A stretch of 64,000 nt of DNA, from assembly GCF_044324875.1 (NCBI RefSeq), contig NZ_CP172185.1; one strand, written 5' to 3'. Numbering within the stretch: the first letter of the stretch is position 1; every line of letters starts with the position of its first letter. The notes under the pieces are model-generated. The model worked only from the letters and a program-made list of their open reading frames with translations, ran no database searches and was not told where the DNA came from. The translations under genes and the position numbers were made by a program. The stretch comes from Escherichia coli (GTDB lineage: Bacteria; Pseudomonadota; Gammaproteobacteria; Enterobacterales; Enterobacteriaceae). Positions 46,038-46,692 of the stretch are shown here, piece after piece.

Positions 46038-46304
46038 ATGGACATTAACAACAAAGCCCGCATTCATTGGGCATGCCGCCGTGGTATGCGCGAACTCGAT
46101 ATTTCAATCATGCCGTTTTTCGAACATGAGTACGACAGCTTAAGCGATGACGAAAAACGCATCTTTATTCGTCTGCTGGAATGTGACGATCCGGACCTGT
46201 TTAACTGGCTGATGAATCACGGTAAACCAGCCGATGCAGAACTGGAAATGATGGTCCGACTCATCCAGACACGGAACCGGGAACGTGGTCCTGTGGCAAT
46301 CTGA
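46038..46304 (+). CDS. sdhE: FAD assembly factor SdhE (YgfY/CptB)
   Basis: 88 aa starting [28 protein letters not shown]; conserved RGxxE motif. Confidence 0.93.
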
Positions 46305-46692
46305 TTTGCGCGTCTCCTGGCGCGCACAGTGGCTTTCCTTGCTGATTCATGGGCTGGTTGCCGCTGTTATTTTACTCATGCCCTGGCCGCTCAGTTACAC
46401 CCCGTTATGGATGGTGTTACTTTCGCTGGTGGTGTTTGATTGCGTTCGCAGCCAGCGGCGCATTAATGCTCGCCAGGGGGAAATTCGCCTGTTGATGGAC
46501 GGGCGTTTGCGCTGGCAAGGGCAGGAGTGGAGCATCGTCAAAGCGCCGTGGATGATTAAGAGCGGCATGATGCTGCGTTTACGTTCTGACAGCGGTAAAC
46601 GGCAACATTTATGGCTGGCAGCCGACAGCATGGACGAAGCCGAATGGCGGGATTTACGGCGGATTTTGTTGCAACAAGAGACGCAAAGATAA
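46285..46692 (+). CDS. ygfX: Inner membrane protein YgfX (CptA)
   Basis: 135 aa; two transmembrane segments; 20-nt overlap with sdhE. Confidence 0.9.

Follow-up and report, generated by a model that had tools for sequence, protein, structure and literature searches.

We find it likely that sdhE (also ygfY or cptB) and ygfX (cptA), two small genes that overlap in the 64,000-nt stretch of Escherichia coli DNA analyzed here (contig NZ_CP172185.1 of assembly GCF_044324875.1; hereafter, the window), constitute a chromosomal housekeeping operon. In this operon, SdhE acts as a flavinylation chaperone, YgfX would be its tether or modulator at the membrane, translation of the two genes would be coupled, and the toxicity described for YgfX would be an effect of over-expression. 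The overlap itself, judged from its conservation, is an ancient and selected feature that appears to bear the initiation region of ygfX. The locus is otherwise ordinary, being the already known and annotated pair of E. coli K-12.

The gene pair and its chromosomal setting

On the plus strand of the window, sdhE occupies positions 46038–46304 and encodes, from an ATG start, an 88-aa FAD assembly factor (recognized from the ORF list, Pfam, and NCBIfam). On the same strand, ygfX occupies 46285–46692 and encodes, from a GTG start, a 135-aa inner-membrane protein (ORF list and Pfam). The ygfX frame is +1 relative to that of sdhE (offset of 247 nt), and the 20-nt dual-coding stretch at 46285–46304 (plus strand) specifies both the C-terminus of SdhE, (R)GPVAI-stop, and residues M1 to D7 of YgfX. 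SdhE matches the Pfam family Sdh5 (PF03937) with E=5e-26 and 90.8 bits (cut-off of 27), and the NCBIfam SdhE equivalog model NF008130 with 198.4 bits (cut-off of 120) over residues 1–88 of 88. The match of YgfX to Cpta_toxin (PF07254) has E=1e-49 and 168.5 bits (cut-off of 27.3) and aligns its residues 2–131 with profile positions 1–132 of 133. Given these matches, both ORFs are genuine genes and chance ORFs are ruled out. The original prediction, made from the sequence alone, thus named both genes correctly, and the overlap of 20 nt that it described can be read directly from the ORF list.

It had also been predicted that the pair is intact, and an alignment was proposed to look for sequence divergence or a frameshift in either ORF. 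We made this alignment with K-12 MG1655, and neither sign is present. The K-12 pair (sdhE, b2897; ygfX, b2896) is the same locus, with the same neighbors, gene lengths, and 20-nt overlap, and differs at nine nucleotides over the coding region, none of them an indel. One of these is a synonymous difference in sdhE, whose product is 100% identical in amino acid sequence; the other eight are in ygfX and amount to a single amino acid change (134 of 135 residues are identical). The replaced residue, S103 here for G103 in K-12, is part of a variable loop, and the aligned position of Salmonella YgfX is also Ser.

The pair was found in 5425 of 5426 complete E. coli genomes, searched with the 940-bp region and with the 655-bp pair alone, in one copy each at no less than 95% identity, and is annotated there as sdhE and ygfX. 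The one remaining genome gave no match, and one copy is on a record that is labelled as a plasmid. At the DNA level, a minority group of E. coli genomes matches the region with 99.9% identity, and only 427 of the 5425 are at least 99% identical to it. An association with mobile elements or defense systems was considered and rejected, because searches of plasmids, phages, and PADLOC gave either no match or spurious ones. Among 72,556 PLSDB records, only 10 matched; four of these are chromosome-sized (4.8–5.4 Mb) and therefore presumably mislabelled, and the others are records of 51–791 kb from other Enterobacteriaceae. In the phage collection, the only two matches were a Salmonella enterica genome contig and an unannotated record of 1,540 bp, and PADLOC returned no defense-system match for the pair. 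Both genes are under strong purifying selection, with dN/dS of 0–0.08 for sdhE and 0.04–0.16 for ygfX. Overall, the pair behaves in genomes as a housekeeping operon does: it belongs to the core, with one copy, fixed synteny, essentially no presence on plasmids or phages, and purifying selection.

The gene order also is that of K-12, namely bglA, yqfB, trhA, ygfZ (divergent), sdhE–ygfX, fldB (convergent), xerD, dsbC, and recJ. The ygfZ gene (window 44815–45795, minus strand) is named “folate-binding protein YgfZ” in the RefSeq record of K-12 and “tRNA-modifying protein YgfZ” in that of strain Ecol_316. Of the seven distant relatives with an upstream sdhE (described below), five also have ygfZ beside it in divergent orientation (L083, L085, L089, L090, and L091). 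This long-conserved ygfZ–sdhE neighborhood hints at a shared role in the maturation of complex II cofactors. In another distant relative (L087, with a YgfX that is 28% identical), sdhE–ygfX lies at 525–1212, with the 20-nt overlap kept, and the place of fldB is taken by a 556-aa gene (1305–2975, minus strand) with matches to FAD_binding_2 and Succ_DH_flav_C, which is probably nadB, a paralogue of SdhA/FrdA. Beyond it are genes for an ECF sigma factor and an RseA-domain protein, an rpoE–rseA-like arrangement. It should be noted that in Enterobacter sp. EA-1 (L053, CP025776.1) approximately the first 25 codons of sdhE are out of frame and contain stops, next to an intact ygfX; either the assembly is in error here, or sdhE is a true pseudogene and ygfX has been left “orphaned.”

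Signals for expression of the pair were sought on both sides of it. A scan for consensus sigma-70 promoters near the pair found none. However, cross-species alignment of the 242-bp ygfZ–sdhE spacer points to a candidate −10 hexamer, TACAAT, at 45997–46002 (plus strand), which lacks a good −35 element but in which the TA...T of TAcAaT is kept in at least 95% of 80 species; the promoter that it would define would serve sdhE–ygfX. A Shine-Dalgarno-like AGGAAG precedes the sdhE ATG at 46029–46034 (plus strand) and is conserved across the 80 species. Other blocks of the spacer, at 45838–45866 and 45883–45889 (ATGGTAAAAGAG, CAATGCAAGTGC, and TGTGCCT), are likewise conserved in at least 95% of the 80 species, and may be shared regulatory elements or elements of the ygfZ promoter. 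In the scan for intrinsic terminators, the only terminator-like match falls inside ygfX and was discarded. The 39-nt spacer between the convergent ygfX and fldB is filled by a hairpin, UGACGGC...GCCGUCA (46696–46725, strand unassigned), with a folding energy of −22.5 kcal/mol (z=−4.0; none of 200 shuffled sequences was as stable). Because a U-rich tail follows the hairpin on the minus strand only, it is most likely the terminator of fldB; whether it also ends the ygfX transcript is uncertain.

No Rfam element was found in or near the pair at E≤1. Elsewhere in the window, several RNAs were matched. A SIB RNA at 31045–31195 (minus strand; 136.5 bits; Rfam type, antitoxin sRNA) is presumably the antitoxin of an ibs/sib type I toxin–antitoxin pair, and the window therefore has a better-founded toxin–antitoxin element than cptBA. 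The 6S RNA (SsrS) matches at 31844–32027 (minus strand; 139.8 bits), and the ES036 (CssrF) sRNA at 16778–16820 (minus strand), with a score of 42.5 bits that is just over the gathering score of 37.6. The naRNA4 (CssrE) match at 44637–44714, in the trhA–ygfZ spacer, occurs on both strands (81 and 60 bits); it is a palindromic repeat of the REP/BIME type, and the small “MPDATLTRLI...” ORFs are translations of the repeat.

The 20-nt overlap and the start of ygfX

The overlap was surveyed in 80 Enterobacteriaceae species, each represented by one genome. In all 80, sdhE is directly upstream, ygfX starts with GTG in phase +1, and the overlap is 20 nt. The consensus of the shared stretch is GTGGTCC[T/A]GTGGCAATCTGA, in which only one site varies. 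Third-codon-position entropy, which we used as the measure of synonymous variation, is 0.13 bits for the last eight codons of sdhE and 0.21 bits for the first eight of ygfX, compared with 0.8–1.7 bits in the remainder of both genes. The suppression of synonymous change reaches ~16 nt upstream of the GTG, into a candidate translation-initiation region for ygfX inside the 3′ end of sdhE (ACACGGAACCGGGAAC; 46269–46284, plus strand). Here the per-position entropy is near 0, sdhE synonymous sites included, and two rare CGG Arg codons are almost invariant. The match to a Shine-Dalgarno sequence for ygfX, as read from the sequence, is weak.

The loci of this survey were retrieved via an alignment of five sequences, and their reach is the Enterobacteriaceae only. 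One of the two peptide patterns used for retrieval was the YgfX N-terminus itself (MVLW[QR][SAC][DE]LR), so that the sample is biased in favor of loci with a conserved N-terminus; the second does not depend on the overlap. Broad alignments of YgfX contain no conserved stretch of 7–10 residues. Distant relatives of YgfX were retrieved by exact protein identity, and are thus free of the bias from the N-terminal pattern. Seven of the eight (23%–37% identity) have an upstream Sdh5 gene that overlaps ygfX by 14–26 nt, and they usually have a divergent ygfZ and a convergent fldB as well, synteny being kept at 27%–37% identity. The eighth adjoins a fabF-like gene on a short contig. Persistence of the overlap in all 80 species and in these distant relatives is the reason for regarding it as ancient and selected.

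The GTG of ygfX precedes the sdhE stop by 17 nt, and the initiation region would in consequence be written into the last sdhE codons. Translation of ygfX, at a low level, would then be coupled to that of sdhE. Because the putative initiation region sits inside the last codons of sdhE, whose synonymous sites are conserved to an extreme degree, coupling of this kind is most likely. We looked for its basis in a hairpin that sequesters the start codon, and rejected this candidate: the local RNA fold around the ygfX start is no more stable than that of shuffled sequences (z=−0.92), the region is invariant, and the hairpin sequence is missing in the distant relatives.

There are two other ways in which the overlap could be read. 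It might be an artefact of annotation, with ygfX starting downstream (e.g., at the TTG at 46306) and the genes merely abutting. GTG is the weaker start codon, the Shine-Dalgarno match upstream of it is poor, and the TTG is one base past the sdhE stop. However, the GTG is invariant in the 80 species, whereas the TTG varies as a Leu codon does (CTG, TTA, CTT). Residues 2–11 of YgfX are conserved family-wide down to ~25% identity (W4, L8, R9, and S11 among 45 family representatives), the Pfam profile begins at residue 2, residues 2–8 form a confidently modelled beta-strand, and the distant relatives retain their overlaps. The TTG start was rejected on this conservation, and we consider a non-overlapping arrangement very improbable. 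Even less credible, in our view, is programmed +1 ribosomal frameshifting at the overlap, by which an SdhE–YgfX fusion protein would be made. It would suit the +1 frame of ygfX, and several predicted proteins of 217 aa from metagenomes do carry both the Sdh5 and Cpta_toxin domains. In all, fusions of 166–217 aa were seen in metagenome and Logan assemblies (P0003, P0004, P0006, P0007, P0009, P0012, P0013, and P0021). However, their junctions vary (after G83, V85, or I88, or as early as residue 60), they fall in clusters of one or two sequences, and all 80 reference genomes have two separate ORFs. The overlap also has no slippery or hungry-codon motif like that of prfB (RF2), whose +1 frameshift site happens to be in the window (50889–50904, plus strand) as an exact AGGGGGTATCTTTGAC, comprising a Shine-Dalgarno-like element and the CUU UGA C slippery site, downstream of recJ as in the K-12 gene order. 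Scattered junctions, and fusions that are essentially singletons, led us to reject programmed frameshifting; most likely, the fusions result from sporadic 1-nt deletions or sequencing errors in reads from E. coli and Citrobacter.

SdhE function and a structural model for YgfX

SdhE is a small cytoplasmic chaperone that promotes the covalent attachment of FAD to SdhA and FrdA, and RefSeq annotates sdhE as FAD assembly factor. The sequence matches the PDB entries 1X6I (YgfY), 6C12, and 6B58 with E=8e-59 to 2e-51. The latter two were both deposited as “FAD assembly factor SdhE,” and we take them to be complexes of SdhE with SdhA and FrdA. The translation contains the RGxxE motif as R15-G16-M17-R18-E19, which is needed for flavinylation according to McNeil & Fineran 2013 (as cited in PMC8621075), and a Shewanella study made use of an SdhE G16R/E19A mutant (PMC8621075). 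For the protein encoded here, flavinylation activity would follow from its 100% identity to the characterized K-12 protein.

An AlphaFold2 model of YgfX, built on an alignment of 45 sequences, has a pLDDT of 94.6. It comprises a strand (residues 2–8), two helices (12–31 and 36–62), six strands within 65–112, and a final helix (118–134), and the two long helices bear out the earlier statement that YgfX is a two-transmembrane protein. As read from the sequence, Arg clusters flank the helical hairpin on its N- and C-terminal sides and the loop between the helices, PWPLSY, is uncharged, from which the positive-inside rule predicts an N-in/C-in topology. With moderate confidence, the cytoplasmic part of the model can be described as a PH-like beta-sandwich that is capped by the C-terminal helix and receives one of its strands from the N-terminus. 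A Foldseek search of the model against the PDB gave no significant match, the Pfam bPH families gave none to YgfX at E≤10, and no solved structure with a sequence related to YgfX was found. If the model is right, the N-terminal strand has to pair with the C-terminal sheet, so that codons within the overlap specify an element of the structure, and this would be a second reason for conservation of the overlap.

The sdhE and ygfX genes are co-transcribed in Serratia. According to published work, YgfX multimerises. An interaction between YgfX and SdhE has been reported (PMC5042078, PMC3985639), and in Serratia swimming was affected by deletion of sdhE but not discernibly by deletion of ygfX (PMC5042078). 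YgfX is probably a dedicated inner-membrane partner of SdhE, one that would tether or modulate it at the membrane site of complex II assembly. A more specific version, which we offer as tentative and somewhat doubtful, is that YgfX is a PH-like membrane adaptor that positions or regulates SdhE during complex II assembly and is no toxin; the strand encoded within sdhE and the embedded initiation region would together explain both the frozen overlap and a coupled stoichiometry. Should YgfX truly be a membrane adaptor, the locus would need to be dropped from inventories of toxin–antitoxin systems and treated within complex II/FRD biogenesis.

The toxin–antitoxin question and comparison with known systems

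The published alternative is that CptB–CptA is a genuine type IV toxin–antitoxin module, in which YgfX blocks the polymerisation of FtsZ and MreB and SdhE/YgfY is the physiological antitoxin. This goes back to an over-expression report in E. coli (Masuda 2012, as cited in PMC8621075 and PMC3985639). Moreover, the Acinetobacter baumannii homologues inhibited growth when placed in E. coli, an inhibition that strong induction of cptB reversed (PMC8132199). The Pfam family carries the name Cpta_toxin, and the antitoxin-first, overlapping bicistronic layout resembles that of toxin–antitoxin operons. On the other hand, the phenotype was not reproduced by the Fineran group for the Serratia locus, whose two products do interact (PMC3985639, PMC5042078), and in Shewanella co-expression of the two genes worsened growth and cell shape was unchanged (PMC8621075). 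The partners of a type IV system by definition do not interact, and the published interaction of YgfX with SdhE contradicts that definition. SdhE also serves a housekeeping role of its own, in complexes that have been solved, and even relatives of 27%–37% identity have the pair in an unchanged syntenic context. Patchy distribution, multiple copies, and linkage to mobile elements are typical, although not strictly defining, traits of toxin–antitoxin systems, and sdhE–ygfX shows none of them, being a single-copy core locus in fixed synteny, essentially absent from plasmids and phages, with dN/dS no higher than 0.16. Because of this genomic behavior and the published interaction, we treat a physiological toxin–antitoxin role as a minority reading and think it unlikely. 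Many membrane proteins are toxic when over-produced, and in the housekeeping operon that we favor the toxicity of YgfX would be of this kind, with no physiological toxin function.

The original prediction had presented YgfX as a toxin-like inhibitor of cytoskeletal proteins and SdhE/YgfY as its antagonist. It is correct that YgfX/CptA has been published as a cytoskeleton-inhibiting toxin with YgfY/CptB as antagonist; missing are the better-established role of SdhE in flavinylation and the controversy. The earlier reading is thus true to the publications and incomplete, and probably misleading as to function. The same caution applies more widely, since automated toxin–antitoxin catalogues list sdhE–ygfX as a “type IV TA system” despite its housekeeping behavior. 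For example, Cpta_toxin was recorded in at least 80% of all E. coli sequence types studied in one survey (PMC10790755).

Considered as a member of the SDHAF2/Sdh5/SdhE family (PF03937), the SdhE of the window does not differ from what is known: it matches over its full length, the motif is present, and structures have been solved for the identical protein. In this analysis, a downstream ygfX partner was seen only in enterobacterial genomes and in contigs from metagenomes or genomes; with 135 clusters at 50% identity, the family of YgfX is a small one. Two transmembrane helices and a PH-like domain make up the “bacterial PH” architecture (PF03703-type). Compared with such membrane-anchored PH-like proteins, YgfX as modelled would differ in that its hairpin is inserted after the first strand, with the N-terminus giving the domain a strand.

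The closest likeness among toxin–antitoxin systems is to CbeA–CbtA (YeeU–YeeV), which shares with sdhE–ygfX a pair of small adjacent genes, FtsZ and MreB as reported targets, and a second gene reported to be toxic when over-expressed. According to the work cited in PMC8621075, CbtA-type modules are found in K-12 in cryptic prophages and in several copies. Unlike these, sdhE–ygfX belongs to the core genome in one copy and has deep synteny, its “antitoxin” performs another function in an essential pathway, and its two partners interact.
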